Below, piece after piece: positions 11,576 to 54,040 of a stretch of 64,000 nt of DNA (position 1 is the first letter of the stretch; the number at the start of each line of letters is the position of its first letter). The stretch is from assembly GCF_006345805.1 (NCBI RefSeq), contig NC_043000.1, forward strand, positions 23,436,001-23,500,000. The letters run 5' to 3'. The notes under the pieces were generated by a model. The model was not told the DNA's origin and made no database searches. It saw nothing but the letters and a program-made list of their open reading frames with translations. The position numbers and the translations under genes are program-made. Origin of the DNA: Octopus sinensis. Taxonomy: Eukaryota.

Positions 11576-12221
11576 TAAAAGGGTATCTCTATGCCGCTAA
11601 GATAAAAAGGCAAATGTAACAGGATCTAGTGGAGAGTAAGCTGAGTACACATGGTTGTTTTGATGTGTTTCAAGTGATTTAATATGTTGATCAGGTGCAG
11701 GTATGGCCATGTTGTTTAAGTTCACCATCTCTCTATCTTGGGTATATATCTTTTATAAAGCATAGCTTGGTCTATACCTTGTGAATGGGGTACAGTAGAC
11801 GGAAACTGGGCAGAAGCCTGTCGTGTGTGTGTGTGTGTGTTTATATCACACACACAACATCAGTCTAAAAACCAATGTTGTTCTTTATGTCTGTAACTTA
11901 ATGGTTCAGCAAAAAGAGATCTATAAAATAGGTACAGGCATTGATGTGATCAACTAAGACTTTTGATGGCTGTGCCACAGCTCAGTGACTGAAACTAGTC
12001 GTTAAATTTTAGCTATTCAGTCTCGCATGAGTTTTTGATGGGTAGATTAAAAAAATGAAAATACTGAATTAAGATTAGTTGACCAGCAGCACCTTCAGAT
12101 GAAAATGTAAATTTATTTTATGTATACTTATGAATGTATTGAATTGATTTCAAATTTATATGTATTTGTGTGTATTTTCTTGTTAGTTTAAAGCTGTTTT
12201 TTCTTTCACTTTTTTCTTCAG

Positions 12222-22330: not shown

Positions 22331-23420
22331 CCCTTTGTTACCAACCCGGCTGAAACTGGCTCTGGCTCTTTAGTATAAATGTCTTGTTTTTATAAATTTT
22401 GAATTAAAATCTTCCACCAAATCTTAGTCACAATTTATGTTCCTAACACTAGCTTAATGGTAACTAAGTTATTTTACTAAATTCTTTGTTATATTTAAAA
22501 TAATTGGAAGAAACACAAAGCATCACAAAATAAATACAGTAACATCATCATCATCATCATCATCATTTAACGTCCGCTTTCCATGCTAGCATGGGTTGGA
22601 TGGTTCAACTGGGGTCTGGGGAGCCCGAAGGCTGCACCAGGCCAGTCAGATCTGGCAGTGTTTCTACAGCTGGATGCCCTTCCTAATGCCAACCACTCCG
22701 AGAGTGTAGTGGGTGATTTTATGTGCCACCGACACAGGTGCCAGACGAGGCTGGCGAACGGCCACGCTCGGATGGTGTTTTTTATGTGCCACCGACACAG
22801 GTGCCAGACGAGGCTGGCAGACGGCCACGCTCGGATGGTGTTTTTATGTGCCACCGACACAGGTGCCAGATGAGGCTGGCGAACGGCCACGATCGGATGG
22901 TGTTTGTTATGTGCCCACAGCATGGAGGCCAGTCGATGCGGTACTGGCTACGGCCACGTTCAGATGGTTTTCTTGTGTACCACCGGCACTGGTACCACAA
23001 AGATACAAATTCCATTGATGTTCATCTATTTTGATTTGTTTTGATTTTCACTTGCCTCAACAGGTCTTCACAAGTGTCACAAGAAGGAAGGTATGCACAG
23101 GTGGACTGACTACGTCCCAGGTAGGGGCCACAGGTTATGGCCTGACTAGTCTTGCCGGGTCTTCGGATGGTGTTTTTATGTGCCACCGACACAGGTGCCA
23201 GATGAGGCTGGCAAACGGCCACGATCGGATGGTGTTTGTTACATGCCCACAGCACGGAGGCCAGTCGGTGCGGTACTGGCTACGGCCACGTTCGGATGGT
23301 TTTCTTGTGTGCCACCGGCACTGGTACCACAAAGATACAAATTCCATTGATGTTCATCTATTTTGATTTGTTTTGATTTGATTTTGATTTTGATTTTCAC
23401 TTGCCTCAACAGGTCAGGGT
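22331..23420. mobile_element. TTAA MITE whose right TIR is interrupted by a (GAT)n-tailed repeat (22544-23416)
   Basis: ttaacccctttgttacc...aatacagtaac|catcatcat...caacaggtc|agggttaa. The insert contains ~62-bp tandem units and a ~250-bp internal duplication. Confidence 0.75.
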
Positions 23421-27464: not shown

Positions 27465-28887
27465 CACGAAAGCACCAGGGTAATGCACTGTAGACAGGTA
27501 TAATTCCAATAATTTTATATATTGCATTAAAACATTTATTTATTATGCAGTTTTGAGGAAAATATTACAACTTTAAAATGCATTCTCACTCCATATAGTG
27601 GCAGGAAAAGTTCTTGTAAAAACATCAGCAGTTATTTTATAAGGAAACAATATCAAAGATAACAACATTGAACATTTTTACAAAAATAGTCATAAAAAAT
27701 AAGAGAATAAACCACTGGGATGATTTATGTTTTGTGAAAAAGTTAAAATATTTATATGTTAAACCCATAAGATTTTTAGTTTGATTCATTGCTATAGTAA
27801 CACATTGTACTCGCAACTCTAAGATTAACTTTTTAAGTCCAATGACAAAAAAAAAGTTATTCTTTAATAAATGTCACTCAGTGGAATTTTAAAACTTTGC
27901 TTCAGATAACACAAGATATACCCATAGGACACAAAAATGTGGACATCAGTTAGAAAAAGATGATTTAATTTCATCACCATAATCATAATTATCACAGTGA
28001 ATAAACTAAACATAACGATAACAACAAATGCAACGATGATAACATTAAGAGGATTGATTAAAGGTTGAGATTGTAAAATGGGAAGAAAAAAAGATAAATA
28101 GTTTCTATATATTACGATATTAAGTTTAACAATTATATGTAAGCAACACTTATTCTTTTATGCATTTCAGCCCAAAGGCTGTGGCCATGCTGGAGCAGTG
28201 CCAGTAAATATAAAAATAATTTTGCTTTATATTTCATGATCATGTTTTTGTTTTTTTTTTCTCAAAGATGGCATCAGCTTACTCCTGCATTGCATCATCT
28301 GTGAAATCCAAACAAGTTCGATCCATCCACTTCTCCAGGCTTTTCAATGTCTCTGTTTGACTGTTGTTTCCATTGTGGACTTACAACATAGTTTTTAAAC
28401 TAAGCATCCTTCATTCATTCATACTCCATAGTTCTATAAGTGAAACTGTCTTTCCTATAAATGCAATCCAATGACTTTGACACCATGTCAACTTCCTTGC
28501 CTTTCTCAAACACCAACATCTTGTACACCACACTCGATTTCATCCTTTATATTCACTACTATCAGTGTTTTACTGACAACAGCCTCACACTTCTTTTAAT
28601 TTTCTAACAAAAGAGAAACCCTTTACTGCTGACAGAAGTAACATTTCCCTCAAAATTTTTCCACCCCCTATTTTACTATTTTACTTTATATTAGTTCTAG
28701 CTCCACTGCTAGCATTAATTAAGTAAAAAAAAACTAAGCAGAAGTTTATTATTTTCATAAAAGCCGTCCAAACAATCCACAGTCTTTTAGCAACTCTCAT
28801 CAATCAAGTTGAGTCTTATTCACTCATCTTTTTTCACCGGTTTACTGGACCAATCAGAAAGCAGCAAGAATTTTCAGCCATTCTCAA

Positions 28888-29085
28888 GGCAGCGAGCTGG
28901 CAGAATCATTAGCACGCCGGGCAAAATTCTTAGCAGTATTTCGTCTGCTACTACGTTCTGAGTTCAAATTCCGCCGAGGTTGACTTTGCCTTTCATCCTT
29001 TCGGGATTGATTAAATAAGTACCAGTTACGCACTGGGGTCGATATAATCGACTTAATCCGTTTGTCTGTCCTTGTTTGTCCCCAT
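28888..29085 (+). mobile_element. tRNA-derived SINE with Meta/MESC-like central domain
   Basis: gcgagctggcagaatc...gagttcaaattc...gactttgcctttcatcctttcggg..gat.aaataagtaccag. Other copies at 33463-33674(-), 34203-34435(-), 52836-53056(+); degenerate copies at 17400-18120. Confidence 0.7.
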
Positions 29086-31663
29086 ACAGTAATCAGAGAC
29101 TTGTTGACACAGAAATTTAAAGTTCTAAATGTAAGTCTCCATCACTGCATCATTTAATAAATATATTCCTCTATTCCCAATGATATCGAGGTCAACCTCT
29201 TTTGTCATCACATGATGTTTGTCAATATACATCATCATCATCATTTAATGATACTGGCAACGGCCACGCTCAAATAGTGCTTTTTATATGCCACCTACAC
29301 AGGAGCCAGTCCAGTGACACTGGCAACGACCTCGCTCGAATGTTTTTCACGTGCCACCAGCACAAGTGCCAGTTAGGCAACGCAGGTAATGATCACGCTC
29401 AAATGGTGCTTTTTACGTGCCACCGGCACAGGAAGGAGTTTGTAGTTTTGGCAACGATCACGCTCGGATGGTGCTCTTAGCGCTCCACTAGCATGGATGC
29501 CAGTCATCGAATTTGATTTCAATTTCGATTTCACTTGCCTCAACAGGTCTTTGCAAGCAGAGTTTAGTGCCCAATGCATATTAAGCCAGTAGATGCTTGT
29601 CTTTCTGGAAGCGTGTAGAAAATGAAAGGTAACTTATGTACATCATTTATTATTCTTGTCCTTTACATCCATATTTATCCAGTTCTGATGGTTGGTCACA
29701 CTGAAAAAACTGCAATGCATTTAGAGCACCTAGTTTTAGTCTCTCATCAGATTTTCTTGTCAAAATATTTTCTTATACTTCCTCCACAGTAATAAATTCC
29801 TGCCAATCTCTTCTTGTTTCAATACCACAAAAGACCACATCCCTAATACTATTACCATTCTGCAGACCTTATCACTAACACATGTGTTTACTTCCAGGCT
29901 TTTTAATTTCAATCTTTTAATATGCATACATTAACATCTTTCTTGTCCTGAGGGTTACCAATGACCCTATCCCCATGCTATATACTTAATATATTATAGG
30001 AGTCACCAGAGATTTATACTATATTCTTAATCTACCATTGGGAGTCACCAGTGACTCCCAGTGCTGATGCTATTTCCACGGAGTGTCTCTTTACTGTGGT
30101 TCAAACCACATTATTCGAATCTGAAGAAATGTACAGAACACAGGTATCAGAAGGGTGCAAGTCACTGTCATCTCCATCATTGGAATGCTACCCTCCATAA
30201 AATAATTTTTGTGAAAAACAAGCCATTAGGGCTTATATATTCTGTAGAGAAAAAAATCCATAAATGGAAGTATAATTGATGTTTTAGCATTTATTAACAT
30301 GTGTCTCACAGGTGACTCATGCAGTTCAGAATAAATATATTTGTTATGTACGACAGGTGAATCCAGTGATACCCATGCAATAAATCAATGTGGTAGTTTA
30401 TGTGTATCATCATCATCATTATCAAAAAAATTAAAAGATGCATAATTTATAGCAAAATTAAATCATTGGTACAAAAGAAAGTATAGTACAAAATTAGATT
30501 GGCAGGCAAAATGTAAAACTTGATCAAGTATATTAAAATATAAACTTAAATGCAAACAAAACATTGTTAAACAGTGACAATGCAATAAAATTGTTGTTGT
30601 TGTTATTCAACCTCAATCAACAGTGACTGAGCAGATTTTTCCAGCCTTGGGGGGAATATGTATCTAGGCCTACAATATTTAATGTGTCCTTTTGCTTTTT
30701 AAGATGACTATCTCACATGGGAAATTTGATACAGAGCTTCCAAACCAGTAGGCAAGGTCAAGACAGTTGACAGTGAATAATGATAGACATAAGAATGTTA
30801 TATTAAATATTTGTTCAATAAAGTAAGACACAGCAAAGGTAAACTACACAATAACTAGAAAAACAAATATGCATTATATATATTATTATGTGTGTGTATA
30901 CATACACACGTATATGTGTACTTATATTTATTTTCTATTATACATATTCTACTTATTGTATAACATTACTATTTTATGTACACTCCTTCATGTACACTGT
31001 TTTACCCTACATTATTATGTTTAACCTAATAGTTTCTTATGTGGTGGTTTAATAAAGTATGTGGTTGAGTATTATCTGGTAATTGATATTTGATTTCGAT
31101 GTATTTCTCCATTTTCTTATTTTGTATATATATATATATATATATATAAATATGGTATTATAAGTTCAGCAAAAATTTAGATTCAGAGGGTATATATCTA
31201 CCCTCTTTGTAATGGAATAAGTATAAAAATGAACATTGTCAATTTAATTTTAAAAATTCCATATATGCCTGAAGAGTGCTCTACATTTTAAAACTGATGT
31301 AATACTTACATTGTTTAATTAAATGAAGTAGCATGAAACAATTGTACTACACTACCTTTGGATATCCTTGTTGCTTATTTTGAGTATATATATATAAATA
31401 TAATAGGATGGTCAGGTCAGAGGGAATGTTTAAGCTGGCAGAAGTGTAATAATTGTGTGTGTATGTTTGTGTGTGTTATATAAGTTTAATTAGAATATCA
31501 ACCAAAGGGGCAGTCATCAGTTTTTAAACTGGATCCACCATAATCTGTCTAGTAAGGGAAAAAGGAAAAAAAAACCTCCAAAAACTAGATAATATTTATG
31601 TTTGCATGGATTTCAAGAGAAGTTGTCCAGACCTGCTGAAATCCTACATGGCTACAACAGGGG

Positions 31664-35546: not shown

Positions 35547-35976
35547 TGGACACATTGAAACTCCGACGTCTGGCAGCTGACCTGGCAGACACCCATAAAA
35601 TTATCAACCATCGCACAAACAATAACACTGAGCACCTCTTCAAACTCCACCCATCTAACACCCGTGGACATATTTACAAAGTAAGAAAACAGCACAGCTC
35701 CCATGACTTCAGGAAACATTTTTTCACGCTGAGAGTTGCTGAAGCATGGAACAAACTGCCGGCATCGGTTGTTAGTTGTCGGAGCACTGCATCCTTCAAG
35801 ACTTCCATGCTTCCTGAGATTCACCAACACTACACTTGATTTTCTTCCCTCCATACACACACAAGCATGTTCACTTTCCAGACATTTCTACATTACTGCA
35901 TGTACTTTATATGCACTTTCTGACAAGTTGTGGTGCACCTGAGCACTGTATACAATAATTTCATTATTATTATTAT
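35547..35976 (+). mobile_element. 5'-truncated CR1/L2-group LINE 3' end
   Basis: LRRLAADL..THKIIN...TRGHIYKV...RKHFFTLRVAEAWNKLPASVV...FK C-terminal motif, 3' UTR and (ATT)n tail. Same family as 47354-48043. Confidence 0.85.
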
Positions 35977-36970: not shown

Positions 36971-39792
36971 TTGGTACTTATATTTTAACAATTTCGGAAC
37001 ATCCAAAAGCGAACTTGATCTCGACTGGATCTGAACTTAAAATGTAAAGAGCCTCAACTAAATGCGATAGGCATTTAGTCTGATAGTCTAACATCTCTGC
37101 TCACCAATGATGGAAAAAGGGCGATGGTGGTACTCAAATGGTCAGCATTCGCCAACTTTTCAACTGACAAAAGTAGGAGCTTTACGATGTCTCCCTTTGT
37201 AATCTTCATTTTCATAGACCTTGGCGTACACTAAGTTCCTAAAATCCATTTTCTGACAATATTGCCATTTGATGTAGGTGTAATTTCTAAAGTGTGTTAT
37301 TAGAATGTCAGTTTGTGATATGATTAGATTTACAACAATAGTTAAAAAATACCGTATTTTAACGTGTTTAAGGAACCCCACTAATTTTGGGGTCTTAAAA
37401 TTTGGAAAAAAGGTTATCCATGAATAAGAAACTCCCATATTTTTTAGCCTAATTTTTGACAAAAAAGGGTTCCTTATACACATTGAAATATGGTATTTCA
37501 TCATTTTTTGTCAATAGATATGGTGTAGGATTATCTGTGTGTTTTTGATGTGGTTGGGAAGTGAATTTCTTAACCAAGCGGCTATGCCGGCATTTATATT
37601 TAGTCTATATAAACCTACATGTGTTTTTATCATCATTTAGTGCAGAACTTCTTTCAGTTTGCCTCAAATAGAACTGAGCCAAATTTTGATTAGTATCGAT
37701 TTATACATTAAGTTCACTGCTGACCTTAACCTTATTTTCAACATTCTCATTCGTGACATATATCTCTTGCATGTCACATGTCGTTTAGTCACAGCTAGTA
37801 TTCACATTGTCAGTCAAATGACATGAAATCATGTCAAAACATTTTTAGGTCAACAAGTGTAATTCTAAGATTTAAACACCAGTAGTCTTATCCTGATACT
37901 AGTGTCCTTCACACTTATAAAGACAGTAGTGAGTTGAGGGAGATTTTAGTTATTGTTTCTAGCAGGATGAGCAGTTTTAAGCAAAAGTTTTAATTAGGCC
38001 TCCCCAAATCAGATGTAACTCTATTAACCACCGCATAGGATATAACCTATGAATACACTTAGCGAAGTCAATTCTTTAATACTGCGATTTCAAGCGAGTT
38101 TTATTCTAAAAAGATTGAATAATGTATAAATGTAATACAGAATGTCATCTTAAGGTATGTGTAGACAGACGGGTGGTCTCACAGACTTAAGGGCATAATT
38201 ATAATCTATGTAAGTCAATAAATAAATACTGTAGGGCCCAATGAATGCATTGATTTGCCAGGGAGCCTATAGCAGTGCTAAGACAGCTCTAGAAGCAGGC
38301 ATTACGCGGACGACAAAATAAAAACATCAAACACGTGTTTACACGCTGTTGCTATTGTTTAGGTCCTGCCTGTTAACCTTAGTCGAAGAAGACCTTATGG
38401 TTAATGGCATTTCAGCTTTGACCATCCAGTGTCTTCCACCTCACATGTCAACCACGAAATTATCTAATGTGACCTTGCCCCCACTTATTATTTTTTTTTC
38501 AACATTAGGGTTTGATTTAAGGGAAGCATGATAAAGTTGTTGATAAAGTTAAAACTAATAAGGGTGGATAATAATAATAACAACAACAACAACTATTGAT
38601 GTGTTTAATCCACTGGTCATAAGTAACTGCTAAGCTCTTGCACCAGAGCTTAACACTAATTTAATTACGGCCAAGTAAAGAATTATGTCGAAATCATTTA
38701 TAAGCACCTCACGAGCTTCGTTTAGCAATTTCACAGAAATGAGATTAATGTCATGGAAGCTGCTATAGTCTTATGTAAAATAATATAAATTAATATTATT
38801 GGTCAAAACAACTTTAACAAGATGTGATAATAAAAGAAACATCGTTATTGTTGATTAAGTTGAAGCTAGAAACCAGTTATATTAATTAACTAATTAACTA
38901 GGCTCATTGAAGCAATCTGGCGACAAGTGAGACTGTGATAAGATCTGTTGGAAATAGCAGCCAACCTCTTCTCAAACCACACTGTCTTAAACAATGAAAG
39001 AATATATTCGATAATGTAGTTTGCTGTCTGGAGAAAACAGATGTGGATGGTCATGGCTGGAATGCTTTTGATTATAGATATCTGCTTGATCAAGTCTACC
39101 CTCGATTCAATAACTGAATGTGTCTCCGATCGCATCAAGTAACATCCTCTAGGCAGACGCTCAACATGCTAGAAATAGCAGCCAAATTCTTTCAGCTCAC
39201 CTTATTGTCTTAAAAAACGAGAAAGACACATTAGTCAAACGTCTTAGACGAGATAGTCGTAATTGGAACGTCTTTAATCATGAGTCTATTCAAATAATAT
39301 TGACTTTGGGACTAACAACAACGGGTCTACCACTGCAGGATATAAATAACATCGGACGATGTCAGTAAACAAGGAACTAATTATATTTTACATAAAAACA
39401 GAAACATAAAAAATGTGTCAACAAATATCTTGGCTCAAGCTTCGACTTATTTAATAAATATTTCTTTTCACATTCCTTATAAAAGATATTCTCCAATGTT
39501 GGATTCCGAAGTTATTTCGAAACTAAACAAGTTTGTCACATTTCGTTATTAATTAAAATAACGATAGTTCGAAATTCCATGCATGAAACAATATTTCTAC
39601 GCAGTACCATGGATATTATACAAGGGCTAACTTTATAAAAGGTGTATAAACAAAATATACGACTGTTTACTAAGAACAATTTTAAAATAACATCAAAATT
39701 TCCTTTACCTTTGCTGGTCACAACAAATTCGCAGCTTCGTTATAACTCCCAAGAGCAGATAACTCCACTTCAGTATGTTCTCATCTTACGTC

Positions 39793-39819
39793 AATAATAA
39801 TAATAATAATAATAATAAT
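39793..39819. repeat. (AAT)9 microsatellite at the Tx1 3' junction
   Basis: Direct inspection. Confidence 0.95.
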
Positions 39820-40100
39820 CAATTCTTTTTTATTGGCCACAAGGGCTGACACGCATGATTACATAAAGGGACAAGACAGGACGAAAGGTTACAAAGGGTT
39901 TTGCCGTTTTTTAAAAACATCGAGTAAAAATCTTTATAACAACTTATAAAATTCAACAATGAAAAACTCCCAAAAGGGGGAGACGTTTCGAAAGGTTCCT
40001 GGTGGAAAAAACCCTACAAAAGCCAACGGGAGCCTGGTCAAAAAAAGAGGGTGTAGAGAGTCTCCTTTCTTCTCCTTTTACATTACCTTTTTCTTTGAAA

Positions 40101-43100
40101 TCACAGGCGAAACCTGAGAACTGGTCCATTTATACAGGCCAGTCTCGCACAATTCACCCACCTTTCATAAAACTTGCTATCGGACAGTACTTTCCTCTCT
40201 AACCTCATCTTCCTTTTCAAGTGAAACTTGAAAAAGTTGATGAGGCCTTGACCAAAGAGGAAAGTGTCTGACTTTAGCCCTTTCAACCGAGTCCACCACA
40301 CGACTTCTTTCGCCACAGCCACAAGGCACAAGAAAACGGCCTCGCCCTCCTTGTTAAAGGAGGTCGGCGGGGCAATCTTCACTATGGATTCGGCCGATAG
40401 TCGGATCCGTCCTATACGTGACAGTAGCTGTTCGACATAAACCCATATTTCAGCAATACTCGGGCACTGAACGAGTGCGTGCAGAACGGTTTCATCGTCC
40501 TGGCAACACCTCGGCAGGCCCGGCTGACGGCACTTCCGTGCCGGTAGAGTTTATCTCGAACAGGCAGAGCCCCTCGGTAGCACTGCCAGGCGAGAGACCT
40601 CTGGAAATTATCCATCGGCCCCGGCCCGAAAGTCCTCCCGAACAGACCGCTCAGTTCGTCGTCTTCAACGCCTAGAGTTTCCCCGAGAACGTCGTCGCAT
40701 TTTTCCTCCACTAACCTCTATAGAACGCTAGAGTGGAGCTGTAACCGACCGCATTGCCCGCCTGGCGGAGGGCGGAGAGGGCTTGACGGCACTCGAGGTG
40801 CCAAGCGCCCTTTCTCGGTCTACGTTTGATCCAGGTCTGCAGCTCCGTCAAAGAGACGAGCTGCGGAAAATCGCGTCTGACAAAAGACGACCACACCTGT
40901 TCACCGTCTAGGAAGCGCTTGAGATGCCGCAGCCTGAGCGCATGTCTGCGCACACAGCAACCACGGCATTCCAAGGCCTCCGTTCAGCGGTCGTTGACAG
41001 CAGATGGATCGCCTGACCAGTGGCACCTGACCCTTCCACAAAAAGTCGAAGAGCAGGCGTACCAGCTTGGCCAACCAGCGGTCGGGACAAGGGACGACGG
41101 TCAAGCGGTAATAGATGACGGATGCGATGTACGCATTCGCCACCTCCGCTCGACCTTTCAGGGACAGCTTCCTCTCGGCCCATTTCTGGGTGAGACGTGC
41201 CACCCTGCTCGTCACCTCTTCCCAGTTCTTATCCACCTGGAGGTCCGGACCGAACCAGACCCCGAGCAGTTTAACGGGTCCGTCTGTCCAGCGCCCTACG
41301 ACGCTGTTGGACGGCATGGGCTTGCCTCTCCAGGTGCCCAGTTGCAAGCCCACAGACTTTTCCGCGTTAATCTTTGCCCCTGTCACCGCTTCGTACTGGT
41401 TTAGCGTCTCGCCAATCAGGCCAATGTGCCTGTGGCTCGACACCACCACGGTGACGTCGTCGGCATAAGCAGACACGCTGTTTCCGCCTCCTAGATCGCG
41501 CGGGATGCCCCTCAAAGCCTCCAACTTGCGCAGTAATGGCTCGAGAGTCAAAATGTACAAGAGGGAGGAGAGAGGGCATCCTTGGCGGACCGAACGCGAG
41601 ATGTCGAACGGTTCCGAAAGGTGACCGTTCACTCGTATCACCGAGCAGATGTTGCTGTATAAAGCAGCGATCCATCCGCGGAAGACTGGACCGAAGCCGG
41701 CTGCCCTGAGGACATTGCCAGGTACCGATGGTCGACCCTATCGAGGCTTTACTCTGATCCAAGTTGATCAAAGCCCCACCCGCGCCAGCGTCGTTACCCA
41801 CCCTCTCTATGATGTAGCGCATGAGATGGAGGTTGTCGTGTATCGACCTGGTCGGCACGCGCATGTCTGCGGTCCGCCGACCAGCTTGTCCACGACAAGC
41901 GCCAATCTCTTGGCTAGCACCTTGGCCAAAATCTTCAACTCTGCATTGAGCAGAGTGATGGGCCGGAAATTCCCTATAACGTCCCCCTTGTTTGGGTCCT
42001 TCTTTAGCAATGCCACCACCCCTCGACAGACAAAAGCAGGAATTCTCCCGTTTTGCTGCCAGTTGCAGTAGACGTTTGCCAACAGGTCCGCAAACAAGTC
42101 TGGCATTGAAAAGTAAAGCTCGTAGGGCAGACCATCCAAACCGGCAATCTACCTCTCGTGCAACTTTCTTCATCGCTTCCTGTACTTCCCAGGCAGATAT
42201 CGGTCCTTCGCAGCACTCTGCCTCGCTGTCCGAGAGTTGCGGCAGTCCGTCCAGTACACACCGAAGTCTGTACCGTTGGTGTCCGTTCCACCGCTCGTCC
42301 CAAACAGTTGAGCAAAGTGCCGCTGAAGCACCGTACACATCTGCTTCGGTTGGGTAACCTCGCGCCCGTTCTGGTCCACCAAAGACCGAATGGTTGCTCT
42401 GTTGCCTCGCTTCGCCTCCGCCACGCGGGCCCATCGAGCGGCTCTAGTCCCCTCCCCGCTTAGCGAACGTGCCTTAGCTCTGACAACGCAGCCTTCGTGT
42501 TTGGCGTCGAAGTGTTGGTCGAGGCCCACCTTGCCGCCAACACGTCGGTCGCGATGCCAGTGTCAAGAGCCTCGTCTAGTTTCTTAACTAAATCCCGCTC
42601 TCTCTTCCTACGTTTAATAGCTAGAGTCTTACTATACCTAATCGACTCTACTCTAATTGCTCTCTTGAGGGCAAACCACCAGTTGTTGTTGATGATTGCC
42701 CCCGTGAGCGCCCGCTTAACTAGTAAACTAATCCGGTCTCTGTAAGCTTTGCACGCCGTTAACGACGCGTTCAGCTTCCAGTAACCGGGTCCCTGTCTAT
42801 GTAGCCTATCTAAGTCGACCGTACAGATCACTAATTTGTGGTCCGTATATTCGACTAGGTGGAATTGTGGACACCCTACGCTGTCCTTATCCGCTGGCCT
42901 ACAAAACACTCTATCTAAGTACGATCTAGACGACCCGATGCGGTTTGTCCAAGTCCACATTGGCACATTCGGGTTGTCTAGTCGAAACCTGTCGGACAGC
43001 TGAAAGCGGCCGAGTAGGTTGGCGAGGCTCTTGCACCCTCCCCCTCTCCTATCAGACGCTCCCCTGCCCACACCGATCGAAACGTTCGTCTAAGACAGCG

Positions 43101-43530
43101 TTCCAATCCCCAACTAGTACTAGAGTGCGTGACGTTCCCAGGAAAACTTCCAGACGTTTGAAATAATCCGACTGCCCTGCTCCTGTCGGAGCGTAGGCAG
43201 CCAGCAGTCTGAAAGCACCGCCGTCACTACCGTCCACGTCGAGGACCACCAACTTACCTTCCGGATCCAAGAAGACTGTCCTTATTTTCAGGTCCAGGCC
43301 CTTCCGAACAACACCGCAGTACCACCACCGCCCGCTCCCGGCCGACACGGAGATAGTAATATCTCGTATCCGCCGAAAAGGGCTGCGAGTTCCTGCGGGT
43401 CGGAGAGCCTGGTTTCACTGATGGCTGCTACATCCACATCATGAAACCTCAGGTCGTTTAACAGGTGACCCTGTTTCCAAGGTGACCCGAGGCCTCTCAC
43501 ATTCAAGCAACCGATTCTAAGATTTGCCAT
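40101..43530 (-). pseudogene. Tx1-like ORF2 (AP endonuclease + reverse transcriptase + C-terminal zinc finger), frameshifted
   Basis: MANLRIGCLNVRGL...ISET; LVGDWNAVLD; SYLDRVF; TDHKLV; GPGYWKLN; DGLPYELY; NFRPITLLN..KILAKVLA.RL; RQGCPLS..LY; SAYADDVT; LGVWFG. Split into overlapping ORFs by single-base shifts. Confidence 0.9.
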
Positions 43531-43569
43531 GTTTCAAAAGTTAGGGGAAAAAAAATGCGAAAAAAGGCT

Positions 43570-44398
43570 CTACTTACTGTTGTTGGTGGTGGGGGTGGCT
43601 CCCTTGTGCTTTTGCACGGGTGCTTCAATGATATTTTTGTAAAGTTTCTGAGAGAAACTTTTCCCTAACGATCCCACATCGTTAGGGAATATTTGTTTTA
43701 TTTCGTTGTAAACTGTTTTGTTTATTTTTATTGTGAGAATGTGTGCTGGTGGTGTGTTGTGTGTAGGTATTATGAAATCTGTAATGTTTGTGCTTGTTTT
43801 GTTTTTCAAATACTCAACCAGTTCCTGGTTTCTTGTATTCACTGCTGTAATCGTGTCTGTAATTGTGTCTGTGTTTGTTTGTGTCTGTGGTAGTGGCAGT
43901 AGTGGTGTCGAAAGTGTTGTTGTTGTTGTTGTTGTTTGTTGTTGTGGGGGTGTGTTGTTGTTGATGTTGTTGTTGATGTTGGGAAGTACTATTTGTTCGT
44001 GTTTCCCCTGTAAATCTTTTTGTTTTTTCCTCCTTTTCTTTTTTGGAGGCACTATGTTCCATTCTCCTTTGTTGGAATCAGAGCTCGCACAATCCGAGAT
44101 CTCTTCATCCGGCAAAGGAATGGTTGAGGGGTCTGCTTCAGTAGCAGGACGAAAAGTTTCTGGTTCCGCCGGTATCGGTGGTGCCGCTGCTCCTGTTACT
44201 GTTGATGTCGCTGCTGTCGACCTTCGAGGTACTGGTGTCGGTGTTGGTTTGGTGGTGGTTGTCGGTGTTGTTTGGTGTTGGTTGTTTTGTTGTTGGAGGT
44301 GGTGTTGTTCGTCTTGGTGCTGGTGTTGGTGATGGTGTTGGTGGTGTGGCAGCCTTTGGTGTTTCTGCTGTTTTTGTTGTTTCTGTTGTTGTTGCTTG

Positions 44399-44429
<31 letters not shown>

Positions 44430-45451
44430 GCTGCTGCCTCTTGCTATACTCCTCCATTCTCTTTTTTTGAATGGGCAGTCCTTTTTAGGTGGCTTTCGCT
44501 ACTGCAGAGGAAACATTTTGGCTTTCGCCCCTCTACAATAACATTTAGCCTTGTCCCATCCAGCAAGATGACAAAGTCAGGTATGGCATTGATGTTTTCT
44601 GCTGGATCTGTACCAGCAGTTGAATACCCATGCCTGACCAGTTCTTTTCTCGTACCCTCCGAACATTCAGAATAGTGGCAGTGTCTTCTATGCCATAGAG
44701 GACAGCCGCCACTAGCCATGAGATTTTCTGTTCGGGGGGTATTGTGCTTATAGTTATTTTTTGTACCTTACGCCCGAGGTACGTCGGGAGGAACAAATGT
44801 TCATTTTGCAAGGGCGAAATGGCGTTCGCCCTTGCAAGCTCCTCTGTTGGGAAGCGAACCTCCACGGTTCCAAATCGCTTCCCTCTTGTCACATAGCTCT
44901 TCTGGCCCCAAATGGGCTTCAGAGCCATCTCTAACTGTTGTGGTGTGGCGTTAACAATCTTTTAGTTTTCTTTTCGAAGACTTTATAAAAGATTGTTCTT
45001 TTGTTTGTCTCTTGTGTGAGTTGTTGAGGTGTGTTGAGGAAACACTGTTCCCCTCCTTTCTCAACAAATCTTGTGCCATCTTTATGTCCTCCATCGTTAT
45101 TTCTACATCTTCCGAAATTTGCTTCGCAGCAGAAGCAAATCGTTAGAGTTTTTTACATTTTTTGTTGGTTCTTGTCTGTATTTTTGTCTGTTATAAGTTT
45201 CTTTTCCTCCCTCTTCGGTACAGCATCACTTGTTGAAGGCAGAGGAGGGAAATCAAGAGTGACGTCGAACGCGACGTCCTGGCTTGCATTCTCCTTTTGA
45301 ACCGAGCGCGTGCTCTCCGGTTCGGAAGGAGGATCTTGTTGCCTTTTACGGCTTGAAATGGGTTGTACGTAACCCGTGACGTTGCCTTTTGTTCTTGTGG
45401 AGGGGGTGTTGCAAGAAGGAGGGAAGAGCCAGCAGCTCGTTTTAAAGCCAT
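43570..45451 (-). pseudogene. Tx1-like ORF1 (gag-like, zinc knuckle, polyQ/low-complexity tail), frameshifted
   Basis: Probable start MALKRAAG at 45451. GRKPKCFLCSSESHLKRT resembles a CX2CX4H knuckle. Q/H/T-rich tail with PPKKKRRKK NLS-like motif. Confidence 0.7.
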
Positions 45452-45670
45452 TTTGTAAATGTGTGTGTGCATAAAAATGTCAATTTCAATGTAATAAAGA
45501 GCAATTTCACCCCGAAGGGGCAAAATTTCGCCCAACCGACGAGGCTCCGCAAGAAGCCGGTCGGTTTGGCTACAAAAATATTAAAAATATTCAAACCTAT
45601 TAAAAAATTTCCAATAAAATTGGCACAAAACTCACAGAGCTGATTCACGTACGTCCATCGGCGTCGGAAA

Positions 45671-45671
<1 letters not shown>

Positions 45672-45707
<36 letters not shown>
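45672..45707. repeat. (AAT)12 between the Tx1 5' end and the Dong-like fragment
   Basis: Direct inspection. Confidence 0.95.
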
Positions 45708-45708
<1 letters not shown>

Positions 45709-46367
45709 TATAAAAAACCTGGATTTGCCCCATGAAAAAAACTGGTGGGAACACAAACCACCCCCAGTGCTTGAAAATGACCACATCTCACTCCTCTGGA
45801 ACTTCACCATTCAAACTGACAGGAAGATAGATGCAAATAGGCCAGACATCATATTGAAAGACTTCAAACAAAGAACATGCCTCCTCATTGATATGACTGT
45901 CCCAATCGATATAAACGTATCTGTCAGGACCTACCAAAAACTGAGCAAATATAAAGATCATTGAAATAGAAATCAGCAAAATGTGGAAGCTGAAGACTAA
46001 ACAATACCTGTTGTCATAGGTGCCCTGGGAATGATAGCAAAAGGGGCTGATAGCTACCTAACTCAGATACCAGGAAACCCAAAATGGCAGAAGTTCAAAA
46101 GATAGTGCTCATGGGACTGCTCATATCCTACGCAAAATACTCTCTATGTAACCTCAAGGTTTAAAACAACCATAATTTCGGTTTAAAAAAAAAAAAAAAA
46201 AAAAAAACTTTTTTTTTTAGACATTCATTAGTACAACATCCCCACCCCCCAAATATATGGCACACTAGGCATAACAACAACATGAACTTCCAACCCTGTT
46301 GTCTCTTGAGGTCTCTGGGTGAGACTTGGAGCCAACTTGTACAAATATAAAGCAAAAGTCAAACATA

Positions 46368-46368
<1 letters not shown>
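45708..46368 (+). mobile_element. 5'-truncated R4/Dong-clade non-LTR element (restriction-like endonuclease domain + 3' UTR)
   Basis: WWEHKPPPVLEND..LLWNFTIQTDRKIDANRPDIIL.D......LLIDMTVP...KLSKY, then (frameshifted) IPVVIGALG...VQKIVLMG..HILRKIL. This is the RPD..D..K.KY RLE signature. Confidence 0.8.

Positions 46369-46428
<60 letters not shown>
46369..46428. repeat. (AAT)20 microsatellite
   Basis: Direct inspection. Confidence 0.95.
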
Positions 46429-47200
46429 TCGTTTATTGGCCACAAGGGCTAACAAAAATCAGTTAAATACCAAACATAAAGGGATAAAACACAGGACGAA
46501 AGTTACAAAGGGTTTTGTCCGTTTGAAAAAGTCCGTGTACAAAAGCAGGATAACAACGAAATGTAAGTAACAATAGGGGGGAGGCGCTTCGAAAGGTTAC
46601 TCGTGGAAAAACCCATAAACTCCACGGGAGCCTGGCCAAAAGGTGGGTAGAGAGCCCCTTTCTCCTTTTATATTTCCTTTTAATTTTCACAGGCGTATCC
46701 TCAGAATTGGTCCGTTCATACTGGCCATTCTTGCGACATTCGCCCACCTTTCAATAAACTTGCTATCAGACATCACTTCCCTCTCTACTCTCTACTTTCC
46801 TTTTCAAGCGAAACTTGAAAAAGTTGATGAGGCTTTCGGCAAAGAGGAAATTGTCTGACCTTAGCCCTTTCAAACGGGTCCAGCATATCACCTCTTTCGC
46901 TATAACCACTAGGCAAAGGAAAACTGCATTGCCCTCCCGGTTAAAGGAGGTCGGCGGGGCAATTCTCACTATGGATTCAGCTGATAGTTGATCCGTCCTA
47001 TACGCGACAGTAGCTGTTCGGCATAAACCCATAGTTCAGCAATATTCGGGCACTGGACGAGTGCATGCAGAACGGTTTCATCGTCCTGGGCGCACCTCGG
47101 GCAGGCCCGTCTGACGGCACTTCCGTGCCGGTTGAGTTTATCCCGAACAGGCAGAGCCCCTCGGTAGCACTGCCAGGCGAGGGACCTTTGGAAATTATCC

Positions 47201-47202
<2 letters not shown>
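46429..47202 (-). mobile_element. Second, 5'-truncated Tx1-like copy (diverged subfamily)
   Basis: MDNFQRSLAWQCYRGALPVRDKL...CPRCAQDDETVLHALVQCP matches 40400-40615. Similar 3' UTR end (gtggccaataaa). Confidence 0.9.
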
Positions 47203-47239
<37 letters not shown>

Positions 47240-47245
47240 GTAATA

Positions 47246-47287
<42 letters not shown>

Positions 47288-47353
47288 GTAATAGTAATAA
47301 TAGTAGTAGTGGTAGTAGTTAGTAGTAGTAGTAGTAGTAGTAGTAGTAATAAT
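47203..47353. repeat. (AAT)/(AGT)n compound microsatellite
   Basis: Direct inspection. Forms the tail of the adjacent CR1-type fragment. Confidence 0.95.
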
Positions 47354-48043
47354 GAAATTATTGTATACAGTGCTCAGGTGCACCACAACTTGTCAAAAGT
47401 GCGTATAAAGCATATGCAGTAATGTACAAATGACTGGAAAGTGAACAGTGAATGAGTCAGCTACATGCTTGCGTGTGTATGGAGGGGAGAAAATCAGGTG
47501 TAGTATTGGCGAATCTCAGGAAGCATGGAAGTTTTGAAGGATGCAGTGCTCCGACAACTAATAACTGATGCCGGCATTTTGTTCCATGCTTCAGCAACTC
47601 TTAGCATGAAAAAATGTTTCCGAAAGTCATGGGAGCTGTGCTGTTTTCTGACTTTGTAAACATGTCCACGGGTGTTAGACAGGTGGAGTTTGAAAAGGTG
47701 CTCAGAGTTATTGTTAGTAAGATGGTTAATAATTTTATGGGTGTCTACCAAGTCAGCTGCCAGACATTAGAGTTTCAATGTATCCATGCCCAGGGAAGTA
47801 AGGCGTTCAGAATATGGCAAATGCCTGATGGAGGGTATTCTCTTGGTTGCACGTCGCTGAACGGCTTCCAGACTATTAATATCCTGGGCAAGATAGGGGT
47901 TCCAGACCGGTGATGCAAATTCTAGGTGAGGTTGCACCATAGCTATATAAAGCTGCAGATAGATAGTTGGAGAGCGGCTCACAAAGGACTTGGTGAGTGA
48001 TGCCAAGACACCCTCAGCCTTCTTGGCAATTTTAGCAATATGG
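47354..48043 (-). mobile_element. 5'-truncated CR1/L2-group LINE
   Basis: LYIAMVQPHLEFASPVWNPY...LEAVQRRATKRIP...YSERL...TRGHVYKV...FFMLRVAEAWN. Its 3' end is identical in form to 35547-35976. Confidence 0.85.
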
Positions 48044-49729
48044 TCTTGTCACATTTTGTGTCACAATGAATCTCCCTGGCAACTACATTAAGGGTATGTG
48101 TATCAGCCACTTGCGTGTTAATTTCATGAGCAGGCTGGTTCTGTCGATCAGATCAACTGGAACGCTTGTGATCTTAACCAACAGAGCGCAGTTATATGTA
48201 CATGTGTGTGAGTGTCTGTATGTATTCACAGACATTGGTCCAGAAACAGCTTGAGAAGATTCCATGTATATAACATGCTTACACACACACACACACACAC
48301 ACACACGAAATGGCTGACACTAGAAAAGACAAAATTAATAATGGAAAATTTCCATAACACACTTGAATTTGAACTTTTGATATTTCATTTTCTAGAAATC
48401 CGAAACCCAGTAGACACTCACGATAAACCATCTCACAGCAGCAAATGGATTCAAGTAATACCATGGGAGATATTAGCATTTATGTTGAAATATAAAACCT
48501 TCAGAAATTAATTTTATGTCTCAAAAGAAACTTTCTTGTGTCATTTGTAATCTATATTAGATGTTCCACAAAGCCTAAACCAGCAAAATCTAAGTCCTCC
48601 AATCTCTAGTCACCATCAGTCTGTGCTGGTTGCCATTGGGGCCTCAGGTGTTTTCAGCCCCTGCACTACTGATTTCCTCCACAAAACCAGGATAACTATG
48701 GTCCATCTAAGAAACGAGCTCCGTAAGATGGGATGGCTGTTGCAATAAGTGCTGCTGGCCATTCTCCAGGGCAACACCTTAGCAATTATGTCCATGAGGT
48801 GTGGCCAAACATACCATTTACTCTGGGAGAGTACAACTTGTTATTTCCTCTCCCATATCTTCTGCTGCTTGCCTCTCTCCCTGTTTTTCATTTTTTTTTT
48901 TGTTTCTTTGCTGAAGTAGTTATAGGGTTTTTTCTCAATAATTTGAACTTTTAAATTCTTTTATTTGTTTCAGTCATTTGACTGCAGCCATGCTGGAGCA
49001 CTGCCTTTAGTTGAACAAATCAATCCCAGGACTTATTCTTTGTAAGCCTAGTACTTATTTTATCTGTTTCTTTTGCCGAACCACTAAGTTACAGGGATCT
49101 AAATGCACCATCATCGGTTGTCAAGTGATGGTTGGGGGGCAAACACAGACACACACACATATGTATATTTATATACACGACGGGCTTCTTTCAGTTTCTG
49201 TCTACCGAATCCACTCACAAGGCCTTGGTCAGCCTGAGGCTATAGTAGAAGACACTTGCCCAAGGTGCCATGCAGTGGGACTGAACCCAGAACCATGAGG
49301 TTGGGAAGCATGCTTCTTACCACACAGCCACACCTACATCTGTTTAATGTTTTTTTTCTTTTCTTTCTTTTCTTCCTATAAAAATATATTGTTGATATGC
49401 CTTCCACAAAAATGTAGAATGACAAGATTCTTTCTGTGTTTGCATACAAACTTCACTCCTGGGACTTTGGTATGCCTTGGGGTTTATAGTAGAAGACACT
49501 TGCCTAGAGTGCCATGAAGTAGAACTGAACTTGAAACCACATGGTTGGGAAGTGAACTTCTTAACCACCCAGCCACACCTACACTTCCATTTTTATATTA
49601 TTTTAGAATTAAGTTTCCTTCAGTGAAGATAAAGAATGAATTTGATAAAAAATAGAATGAAAAATATCAATACTGAAGATTGACTTCCTTGAGTAAGAAA
49701 GAGTGACTATGTCCCTTGGAATAGGGGTA

Positions 49730-50540
49730 GGCCAAGTGAATCGTTAGCACGCCAGGTGAAGTGCTTAGCGGTATTTCGTCTGCTGCTGCATTCTGAGTTC
49801 AAATTCCGCCGAGGTCGACTTTATCTTTCATCCTTTCAGGGTCGATAAATTAACCCTTTAGTGTTTAAACTGGCCATATCAGGCCAAAATTGTCTTCCTG
49901 TTTTATGCTCAAACTAGCCAGCTCTAACCTCTCACACCTACCCTACAAAGTCATTCTAAAAATAAACAGGGACATCATCAAAATCTCAGAGTTACAAGAT
50001 GCTGTACAAGTAATTTAAAACAATATAATTAAACAGGCTTTACATTTGCAGATTAATCTGAATGCTAAAGGGTTAAGTACCTGTGATGCACTGGGGTCGA
50101 TGTAATCAACTTAATCATTTGTCTGTACTTGTTTGTCCCCTCTATGTTTTGCCCCTTGTGGGTAGTAAAGAAATAGGTATTTCGTCTGCCATTATGTTCT
50201 GAGTTCAAATTCTGCCGAGGTCGACTTTGCCTCTCAACCTTTTGGGGTCGATTAAATAAGTACCAGTTACGTACTGGTGTTGATATAATCGACTTAATCC
50301 ATTTGTCTGTCCTTGTTTGTCCTCTCTGTGTTTAGCCCCTCGTGGGTAGTAAGGAAATAGGTATTTCGTCTGCCGTTATGTTCTGAGTTCAAATTCTGCC
50401 GAGGTTGACTTTGCCTTTCATCCTTTTGGGGTCGATTAAATAAGTACCAGTTTTGCACTGGGGTTGATGTAATCGACTTAATCTCTTTGTCCTTGTTTGT
50501 CCCCTCTATGTTTAGCCCACCTGTGGGCAATAAAGAAATA
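49730..50540 (+). mobile_element. Tandem array of Meta-like SINE bodies with a TTAA MITE (49854-50072) inserted in the first
   Basis: Three repeats of ggtatttcgtctg...aagaaata. The MITE has TTAA TSDs at 49850-53 and 50073-76. Confidence 0.75.
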
Positions 50541-52523: not shown

Positions 52524-54040
52524 TATAAGGTATTAAGTCACCTACAGACACTCTCCAGACTCTGGACCACAGGAGTGCTGCCTCTTGCCTCTGACTTTTC
52601 TACCATTACTATAATGACCTCTGCTCCTCAGAGCTGGATGAGCTTATATCACCACTCAGGTATTCCTTCCCAACTTTGTCTCTCCTCCTCTTGTTGTGTT
52701 CACCCCATTCTCTGGCTATACACTAATTATTATTCTTAGTCTTTCCTTACCAGAATGTTAACCTTCTGGAATTCCTTCCCTTGACTTACAAAGCTTCAAC
52801 AGAAATATTAATGGTATCAGTAACATGAATCAAAAGGCGGTGAGCTGGCAGAAATGTTAGCAAACTGGGCGAAATGCTTAGTGGTATTTTGTCTGCCGCC
52901 ACGTTCCGAGTTCAAATTCCACCAAGGTCGACTTTGCCTTTCATCCTTTCGGGGTCGATAAATTAAGTACCAGTTACACTATGGGGTCGATGTAATCGAC
53001 TTAATTCGTTTGTCCCCTCTGTGTTTAGCCCCTTGTGGGTAGTAAAGAAATAGGTATCAGTATCGTGAACCTTAAAGAACCTGCAAAGGTGCCAAGAGCA
53101 CTGCAACATGTCTCCAGACCCAAAAAGTAACAAAGCAAAAAGAAGGAAAAAAAAAAAAAGAAAAGAAAAGACATTTATAAATGCAGGTAACATTAAAAGC
53201 AGTTTTATTGTCATCAACATTGGGACCACCATGATACTATAAAGACAGAATGGCTTGTGTTTCTTAACAAACAATTTGTATAATAAAATATTTCATTTCA
53301 GCAGAAAATTGCAACATCTGAAAGAATCGCTCTGTTGTCTTACAACAGAATCAGAATCTTTAATTTCAGTTTGGTTATATCAGTGTAGAAGAACCAGAGA
53401 TCATAAATCAGAAAACAATTTCGACAAAATAAGGGATTGGAAATAGCCCGGACAAAAATGTTATGTTTATTTAATTAATCATAAAGTAGAGCAACAGCCC
53501 TGACAACTTTACTTATCATTCTGTTCAGCAGAGTATGCATACATTAAATCATTCAGGAACAAAAGCAAAATTACAATGTGTTGAGTGTACCAGTACCAGT
53601 GGAGTTTATTTTTTGACAAAAGCACTTCACATTCATATATATATATATGTGTGTGTGAGTGTATGTATATATATATATTTTATACTTTTTGAGATCTGGT
53701 TATAAGTTATATATTATAAAAAAAAATTATTTCTATATATTTCTTAAATGGCTTATAAACACCTTCCACGCTGCAATTGTTTTCGTTTCAGCACACGATC
53801 TCAGATCAAATTACTTGCTATGCGAGTACATCTCCGTAATATATATATATTATTTGTTATTTATGTATTGGTTTACGTCTATCACTGTTTGAGTTGCATA
53901 ATAGTGGTTTTATCTCTAATTTATATATTTATACTGTGAAATTTGATTTATTACTAAATTGAATTTTTCCCTGTAAGTTTGGAGTTATACTCCCTAATAT
54001 TATCATTATTATTATATATATATATACACACATATATATA

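Follow-up and report, generated by a model that had tools for sequence, protein, structure and literature searches.

A block of four LINE insertions in the genome of Octopus sinensis is best read, with a probability of about 0.68, as elements piled up in one AAT/ATT tract, with Tx1-like copies inserted in (ATT)n, a Dong/R4-like copy inserted in (AAT)n, and a CR1-like copy merely adjoining the tract by its own ATT tail. The block lies at positions 39793-48050 of the window, which is the whole stretch of DNA analysed (64,000 nucleotides; RefSeq assembly GCF_006345805.1, contig NC_043000.1, positions 23,436,001 to 23,500,000). An earlier sequence-only reading had proposed that three clades use the repeat as a landing pad. 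Genome-wide, this holds for the Tx1-like family and the family with a restriction-like endonuclease (RLE), in opposite orientation, and not for the CR1-like family (3/30).

Structure of the block

The features are listed in Table 1. The order and coordinates of the elements given by the sequence-only reading were confirmed, as was the absence of unique DNA between them. Its statement that every junction falls in the same trinucleotide repeat fails at the 5' junction of the CR1-like fragment (48043-48050), which is non-repeat DNA, so not all junctions of the block are in the repeat. A further CR1-like copy at 35547-35975, ending in an (ATT)4 tail, is real. The Tx1-B copy matches the 3' terminus of full-length Tx1-A at 81% identity and shows an AT microhomology at its 5' junction. 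The left flank of the block (39480-39792) has a single match in the genome, itself, and thus no empty paralogue is present there.

Table 1. Features of the LINE block, in window coordinates
Feature	Position	Strand	Description
(AAT)9	39793..39819		(ATT)n tract on the 3' side of Tx1-A, with unique DNA to its left
Tx1-A	39820..45671	-	Full-length (5.85 kb) two-ORF APE-type LINE; young family; this copy frameshifted
Tx1-A ORF2 region	40101..43530	-	Frameshifted in this copy; APE endonuclease, RT and a zinc-binding domain at the C-terminus
Tx1-A ORF1 region (broken)	43570..45451	-	Contains a single CX2CX4HX4C knuckle, intact in other copies, and a tail rich in Q/T/P
(AAT)12 + ATATA	45672..45713; (AAT)12 at 45672-45707		5' flank common to Tx1-A and the RLE fragment, head to head
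RLE fragment	45714 (or 45713)..46368	+	Very young Dong/R4-like element, 5'-truncated so that the end of the PD..D-K endonuclease and the 3' UTR remain
(AAT)20	46369..46428		3' flank common to two elements lying tail to tail, the RLE element and Tx1-B
Tx1-B	46429..47202	-	5'-truncated copy of 774 bp from a related, older family; zf-RVT 1.5e-10
Compound (AAT)n(AGT)n tract	47201..47353		5' flank of Tx1-B that leads into the tail of the CR1-like fragment
CR1-like fragment	47354..~48050	-	5'-truncated LINE 3' end of ~700 bp, joined at its 5' side to non-repeat DNA

The possibility that the block is an assembly error at microsatellites was weighed and is very unlikely. Each kind of junction recurs independently elsewhere, the Tx1 tail-RLE tail junction at L106, L144, L268, and L269, the CR1 tail-Tx1 junction at L261 and L265, and the CR1 tail-RLE junction at L068; the tracts inside the block span only 36-150 bp, and the family-level result does not depend on the block locus. 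A mis-join would fit the internal joins, which are all pure repeat, and the several small indels of the Tx1-A copy relative to other copies of its family, which may be consensus errors. It would also fit four public runs, examined for empty sites and for bridging contigs, in which no contig bridges the block joins and all contigs end at the repeats.

Distances to the column majority were 0/430 for the RLE copy, 11/1276 for Tx1-A, 11/636 for the CR1 copy, and 28/684 for Tx1-B. By this measure, Tx1-B is older than the CR1 copy (4.1% vs 1.7%, P=0.014), and with private changes only, the two do not separate (1.7% vs 1.2%, P=0.5); Tx1-B here is at least the same age as the CR1 copy, and seeding of the block tract by the CR1 tail is no more than one possibility. 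The likely order of insertion is the CR1-like and Tx1-B copies (either first), then Tx1-A, and then the RLE element between the Tx1 copies.

Classification of the families

The open ORF2 of a natural Tx1-like copy (L151) matched Exo_endo_phos (7.8e-17), RVT_1 (3.1e-26), and zf-RVT (1.2e-08) in Pfam, giving the N-terminal APE, RT, and C-terminal zinc-binding domain of Tx1-clade ORF2. A separate ORF1 with a CCHC knuckle is a further feature of the clade, and the motif CX2CX4HX4C was found in ORF1 of several Tx1-like copies. The closest relative of ORF2 with a solved structure is L1 ORF2p. Human L1 ORF2p scored 170 bits, and three proteins called YTX2/TX1 by their sources (the names being automatic) scored 290-330 bits; identity to fish and reptile proteins so named is ~29-34%. 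The search of the PDB with the endonuclease domain returned L1-EN and chimeras only, with weak E-values, and the ESM Atlas search returned unnamed clusters only, a look-up of clusters adding no clade name. The name Tx1-like is based on domain order, motifs, and score comparisons rather than on a tree of reference elements.

The full-length RLE element is ~4.95 kb. Its copy L166 has a natural frame of 1231 codons in which YMDD, CX2C-X7-HX4C, RHD, and PD..D..K were identified by eye and RVT_1 by Pfam (1.1e-27); this is the single ORF of Dong/R4, with RT, CCHC, and a C-terminal restriction-like endonuclease. Dong/R4 elements are described in the available part of PMC7998251 as having no N-terminal zinc finger and a divergent Myb/SANT-like domain. 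Five full RLE copies showed no zinc-finger pattern over their first 1.8 kb, and a W..E Myb-like stretch was seen by eye without a Pfam match. The PDB matches were R2 proteins only, and no named Dong/R4 protein was among the 120 matches listed. The available parts of PMC3812793 and PMC7998251 place Dong (Bombyx), DongAg, DongBg, and Darwinula Dong1/2 in the R4 clade and report the (TAA)n target of Dong elements from insects, molluscs, and cnidarians; PMC13282606 counts Dong-R4 among the elements with recent activity in Octopus vulgaris. The RLE element agrees with Dong, as described in those parts, in its single ORF, RT, CCHC, C-terminal PD..D-K endonuclease, and (TAA)n target, and differs in nothing essential. 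It behaves as Dong/R4, appears Dong/R4-like by domain order, motifs, and score comparisons, and is at most a new member of that family.

The CR1-like fragment covers the C-terminal end only and had no Pfam match, and the ESM Atlas was uninformative for it; its CR1-like label comes from a C-terminal motif.

Insertion sites

Among exact matches to the 5' end of full-length Tx1-A genome-wide, 59/62 had ATTATTAT 1-8 nt upstream, against a background of 2,864/798,400 positions (0.36%), and two of the three exceptions also lie in long ATT tracts. All copy samples other than the exact-pattern counts consisted of top-scoring or first-listed matches, not random draws; in these, the two-unit ATT test was passed by 10/20 truncated young Tx1-A copies (3/5 by the computed test plus 7/15 read by eye; background 2.0%, P about 2e-12) and by 13/36 truncated older relatives of Tx1-B (background 2%). 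The ATT preference is not absolute, since 23/36 of the older relatives fail, and the truncated Tx1-A copies are far less strict than the full-length ones (10/20 vs 59/62, P=2e-5). The family exceeds the >20% of flanks that the available part of PMC4494074 uses as the threshold of target preference in the Tx1 clade. A candidate target duplication (16 bp, including an ATC unit) was found in copy L093, the one informative case in 47 copies with both flanks, such duplications being nearly invisible inside a repeat.

For the RLE element, (AAT)n precedes 18/18 truncated ends that fall within the flank and 12/12 longer copies. In the first 30 of 70 full RLE heads, AAT occurs within 20 nt in 20 and ATT in none (background 2.8%); 6 more have AAT within about 60 nt by eye, and 2 lie in (GAA)n. 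Insertion is therefore in (TAA)n, as in Dong/R4.

Truncated 5' ends of the CR1-like family passed a lax two-unit test in 3/30 cases, none with a run of three or more units, which rules out CR1 as a third targeting clade. The family does not target the repeat; (ATT)n is its own short tail, and its truncated ends lie in ordinary DNA. CR1-clade LINEs are heavily 5' truncated and have a short tandem-repeat tail and no evident target duplication or preference, features that the CR1-like family shares. The tabulation of 5' flanks called for by the sequence-only reading gave AAT/ATT targeting for the Tx1-like and RLE families and no targeting for the CR1-like family, and its view that unrelated APE (Tx1-like) and RLE (Dong-like) types meet on the same repeat is borne out by the genome-wide flanks.

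Head-to-tail Tx1 arrays were found at five loci, with 2-3 full copies, (ATT)5-15 joints, and units 95.6-98.8% identical. Such arrays could yield read-through transcripts, and the ends of full-length copies are much more uniform than those of truncated copies, as would be expected if the 5' (ATT)n belonged to the full-length Tx1 element and were copied along with it, being no sign of a target. This is highly improbable, as half of the truncated ends still adjoin ATT units, 25 times the background, and the tracts vary by site in length and interruptions and adjoin ends of SINEs or CR1 elements that bear ATT tails when empty. SINE-like ends of this kind, with ATT tails and no Tx1, occur in the background sample; the tracts therefore pre-exist Tx1 insertion.

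Specificity might instead be set mainly by pairing, with the (ATT)n end of the Tx1-like RNA annealing to the nicked AAT strand and the endonuclease only loosely T/A-preferring. Nearly all young Tx1-like copies do terminate in ATT units, and only 36-50% of the truncated or older ones are ATT-flanked; a SINE with a Tx1-A-like 3' end (0/2000 shuffles reach its score) lies mostly outside ATT tracts (10/45 heads). However, the CR1-like family likewise ends in (ATT)n and shows little targeting (3/30), and Tx1-A copy L261 has its 3' end straight on the target DNA with only ATTAT, so that a long templated tail is unnecessary. Tx1-clade specificity is moreover known as endonuclease-driven in the available part of PMC4494074, and pairing is an unlikely explanation.

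The reading of two targeting endonucleases suggests how the pile could arise. Insertion would proceed by target-primed reverse transcription. Copies of the Tx1-like and RLE families are bordered by the repeat at either end; polarity is fixed within each family and opposite between the two, and the opposite orientations are likely due to unrelated endonucleases nicking opposite strands of the same repeat. The Tx1 APE would nick the AAT strand, possibly at a T/AA step, which can be likened to the TTTT/AA nick step of L1; the Dong RLE would nick the ATT strand. Annealing of upstream ATT in the transcript to the target may account for the almost perfect 5' junctions that full-length Tx1 copies show, and truncated copies may often lose a few target bases. 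Because the repeat remains on both flanks, each insertion leaves a fresh target, and the Tx1-like family stacks head to tail.

Source of the tracts and co-occupancy

About 347,000 AAT/ATT tracts were estimated genome-wide by extrapolation from 51 in 400 kb, and at least 3,143 exact CR1 ends with (ATT)4 were found. CR1 tails make up 3/69 5' flanks of young Tx1-A copies and about 1% of tracts, and 0/51 background tracts follow the CR1-like end. These counts reject CR1 tails as the main target source; the suggestion that CR1 creates the targets for the other families holds for a minor source of landing sites and not as a general rule. Tx1 landing sites are more often supplied by the tails of other Tx1 copies and of SINEs. 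Another Tx1 tail forms the 5' flank in 10/49 Tx1 copies vs 2/51 background tracts (P=0.014).

Tx1 3' flanks ran into an RLE end in 4/63 cases vs 1/51 background tracts, and no Tx1 was touched by 28 3' flanks or 30 5' flanks of RLE copies. Co-occupancy by the two families is not clearly above chance, so the four-element pile is an uncommon case.

Comparison with known elements

Microsatellite-targeting families of the Tx1 clade include Kibi in (TC)n, Koshi in (TTC)n, and crocodilian families in (TTCC)n/(TTTC)n (PMC4494074, PMC3812793, available parts). As described there, the Tx1-like family resembles them as an APE-type two-ORF LINE with RT and a C-terminal zinc-binding domain, inserted with constant polarity into a microsatellite that borders it at either end. 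The likeness is one of features, and the family differs in its cephalopod host and its target, (ATT)n, which is not pyrimidine-only. The literature search, made outside Repbase and the Tx1 target list in Fig. 3 of PMC4494074, found no (ATT)n target for the Tx1 clade; (ATT)n is probably an undescribed landing site for a Tx1-like LINE.

The sharing of a target class by APE and RLE elements already has published precedents and is no new kind of mechanism. In the available parts of PMC4494074, PMC4640811, and PMC3812793, U2 snRNA genes are the target of both Keno (Tx1) and Utopia (RLE), and Mino (APE) is found in AC repeats and Togen (RLE) in TG repeats. The octopus pair is like these in that one multicopy target serves endonucleases of unrelated types; unlike them, as described there, both families are young and active-looking and occur in one genome, sometimes in one tract, in opposite orientation.

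A wider reading is offered tentatively, and is rather unlikely. In an octopod Tx1 lineage, the endonuclease would have become specific for the AAT strand of the repeat, the ATT strand of which is cut by Dong; the machinery of that lineage would also copy an abundant SINE sharing its 3' end, and Tx1, SINE, and CR1 tails and flanks would resupply targets, forming a self-renewing niche for two endonuclease classes.

The Tx1 clade gains a probably undescribed target, (ATT)n, and a single genome holds a young pair of unrelated endonucleases on opposite orientations of one simple repeat. The pair suits a side-by-side test of enzyme specificity vs RNA-DNA pairing as the setter of LINE targets. In this host, LINE stacks of several kilobases can be expected often to interrupt AAT microsatellite markers and assemblies or to break them.

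Results

The block of LINEs and trinucleotide tracts is a real feature, and the coordinates of its elements and tracts bear out the sequence-only reading that unique DNA is absent between the elements. The same reading placed all junctions within the trinucleotide repeat, which fails at the CR1-like 5' junction, located in non-repeat DNA. In four public runs, contigs stop at the repeats, so that the joins are unbridged and an empty allele is not displayed.

Features of the block, followed by other features of the window
Feature	Position	Strand	Remark
(AAT)9	39793-39819		Leftmost tract of block
Tx1-A, full LINE	39820-45671	minus	Frameshifted
(AAT)12+ATATA	45672-45713		Between Tx1-A and RLE fragment
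RLE fragment	after 45713, to 46368	plus	
(AAT)20	46369-46428		Between RLE fragment and Tx1-B
Tx1-B, truncated LINE	46429-47202	minus	81% identical to Tx1-A end
Compound (AAT/AGT)n	ends 47353		Between Tx1-B and CR1-like fragment
CR1-like fragment	47354-about 48050	minus	
824-codon open frame	12143-14617	plus	No Pfam match at E 0.01
63-bp tandem units	22717-22915, 29256-29430		Within dispersed repeat family, several copies in window
SINE-like copies	28887-29083, 29566-29800, 50074-50540, 52835-53057		

For Tx1-A, a young APE-type family, APE, RT, and zf-RVT domains were found in the natural open ORF2 (1149 aa) of a copy outside the block, and ORF1 carries one CCHC knuckle. Bit scores of the protein were 290-330 for three proteins called YTX2/TX1 by their sources, 170 for human L1 ORF2p, and 78 for R2, a tree-free comparison that favours placement in Tx1; the closest named homologue is an Argonauta hians protein (66-68% identity). 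The last fragment of the block is presumably CR1, a label given from a C-terminal motif, and searches of Pfam and a protein atlas returned no match informative for clade. The RLE family, with a restriction-like endonuclease, is about 4.95 kb long; RT, CCHC, RHD, and PD..D..K motifs occur in a natural 1231-codon frame whose PDB matches are R2 proteins only, and an N-terminal zinc-finger pattern was not found in the five full copies searched. These sequence features fit R4/Dong as described in the text of PMC7998251; among molluscs, R4-Dong is reported almost exclusively from cephalopods in the text of PMC10294476.

Non-CpG distances to the column majority were 0/430 for RLE, 11/1276 for Tx1-A (P=0.08 between these two), 11/636 for CR1, and 28/684 for Tx1-B, an older relative of Tx1-A. 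Private changes were 0.3% in Tx1-A, 1.2% in CR1, and 1.7% in Tx1-B, the last two showing no separation (P=0.5). Judged by these distances, the RLE copy was likely the last to insert, with Tx1-A preceding it.

An ATT run lies immediately 5' of Tx1-A in 30/30 of the best 5'-end matches fetched, the window copy counted. An exact-pattern search gave 62 Tx1-A 5' ends in the 2.72-Gb Octopus sinensis assembly (G000, in which the window is C4:23436001-23500000), with ATTATTAT 1-8 nt upstream in 59 (distinct sites, tallied by hand); the background pass rate was 0.36% over 798,400 positions from 40 evenly spaced 10-kb stretches. Two exceptions lie inside long interrupted ATT tracts, and the third has TATTATT alone. 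A single informative candidate target duplication (16-bp) was seen among 47 copies.

Truncated 5' ends were used as the test of whether the upstream ATT is part of the element. Two ATT units within 15 nt of the junction (lax test, background 2.0%) were present in 3/5 truncated Tx1-A copies of one set and, by eye, in 7/15 of a second (20 loci minus four full-length copies and L256, which has an internal deletion). The resulting 10/20 exceeds background (P about 2e-12) and is lower than the rate for full-length copies (P=2e-5). Several of the truncated copies that fail the test (L094, L261, L267, L146, and L148) are separated by a few bases from the ATT tail of a SINE-like or CR1-like end, as if a little of the target had been deleted. 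Of the 43 Tx1-B relatives (window copy and five duplicate loci left out), 36 have a truncated end inside the flank, and the lax test is passed by 13 of these; ATT at these older ends is a preference, no strict rule.

Head-to-tail Tx1-A arrays occur at five loci, with 2-3 full copies (units 95.6-98.8% identical) and (ATT)5-15 joints. Another Tx1 tail forms the 5' flank in 10/49 non-window copies, taken as highest-scoring or first-listed matches and not at random, versus 2/51 background tracts (P=0.014). In the 3' flanks of L092, L105, L107, and L118, further Tx1 subfamilies with different 5' ends begin directly after the (ATT)n of Tx1-A tails, so the ATT preference extends over several subfamilies. 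At L261 (G000:C1:110910050-110916750), Tx1-A has entered a CR1-like tail; the target is duplicated in inverted orientation on the 5' side of the element, whose own ATT tail is nearly absent.

In the best 30 RLE matches, (AAT)n precedes all 18 copies truncated within the flank, some with short duplications of element sequence between the tract and the end, and 12/12 longer copies. Among the first 30 of 70 exact heads in G000, AAT lies within 20 nt in 20 and ATT in none (background 2.8%); six more have AAT within about 60 nt by eye. Two full-length heads (L277, L302) follow (GAA)n-rich tracts, not (AAT)n. The first few bases of the RLE element are often duplicated in short tandem arrays at its 5' junctions (L034, L037, L039, L050, L052, L282, L286, L294, L300, and L301), and these look as if they came from repeated template jumps. 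Tx1-A and the RLE family share one target repeat, in opposite orientations; (TAA)n is the Dong target in the text of PMC3812793 and PMC7998251. RLE ends occur in 4/63 Tx1 3' flanks versus 1/51 background tracts, and Tx1 contact in 0/28 RLE 3' flanks and 0/30 RLE 5' flanks; co-occupancy is not clearly above chance.

The CR1-like family was rejected as a targeting family, as 3/30 truncated ends passed the lax test and none had a run of three units. The proposal that three clades use the repeat thus holds for Tx1 and RLE and not for CR1-like elements. Perfect CR1-like tails have 0-10 units (median 3). Nor do CR1 tails appear to be more than a minor source of the targets that they had been proposed to create: they form 3/69 Tx1-A 5' flanks (L180, L261, L265), one of 30 was entered by the RLE family (L068), and exact CR1 ends with (ATT)4 (at least 3,143 in G000) represent about 1% of roughly 347,000 tracts extrapolated genome-wide. 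For the tract in the block, two origins are about equally probable: it began as a CR1 tail, or CR1 landed on the border of a compound repeat already in place.

An abundant SINE-like family of ~250 bp has 45 heads in 464 kb (L193-L232), 10 of them within ATT tracts and most outside. By eye, several copies have 13-22-bp target duplications. Its 3' end resembles that of Tx1-A with a score reached by 0/2000 shuffles (Tx1-B: 11/2000), and a Tx1-type partner may mobilise the family.

Discussion

The block holds two targeting families, not three; each is bordered by the repeat at its 5' and 3' ends, with a constant polarity opposite to that of the other family, and Tx1-A copies stack. LINEs insert by target-primed reverse transcription, in which the AAT strand would be nicked first by Tx1-A and the ATT strand by Dong. 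A Tx1-A cut at a T/AA step would differ little from the L1 consensus, TTTT/AA in the text of PMC1950540. The main rival explanation is that RNA ending in ATT pairs with a loosely nicked strand and so sets the Tx1-A sites, but the CR1-like family has an ATT tail yet barely targets, which speaks against pairing alone.

The (ATT)n repeat of Tx1-A differs from the microsatellite targets TC, TTC, TTCC, and TTTC given for Tx1 elements in the main text of PMC4494074. No ATT-specific Tx1 was found in the literature searched, although Repbase or Fig. 3 and the supplements of PMC4494074 may contain one; the passages of PMC13282606 and PMC9115989 listing active Dong-R4, L1-Tx1, and CR1 families in octopus genomes do not mention targets. 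APE and RLE elements with a common target class are already described, namely Keno and Utopia in U2 genes and Mino and Togen in AC/TG repeats (PMC4494074, PMC4640811, PMC3812793). Targeting by Dong is already known, and the Tx1-like lineage with its preference for (ATT)n probably represents a new target variant.
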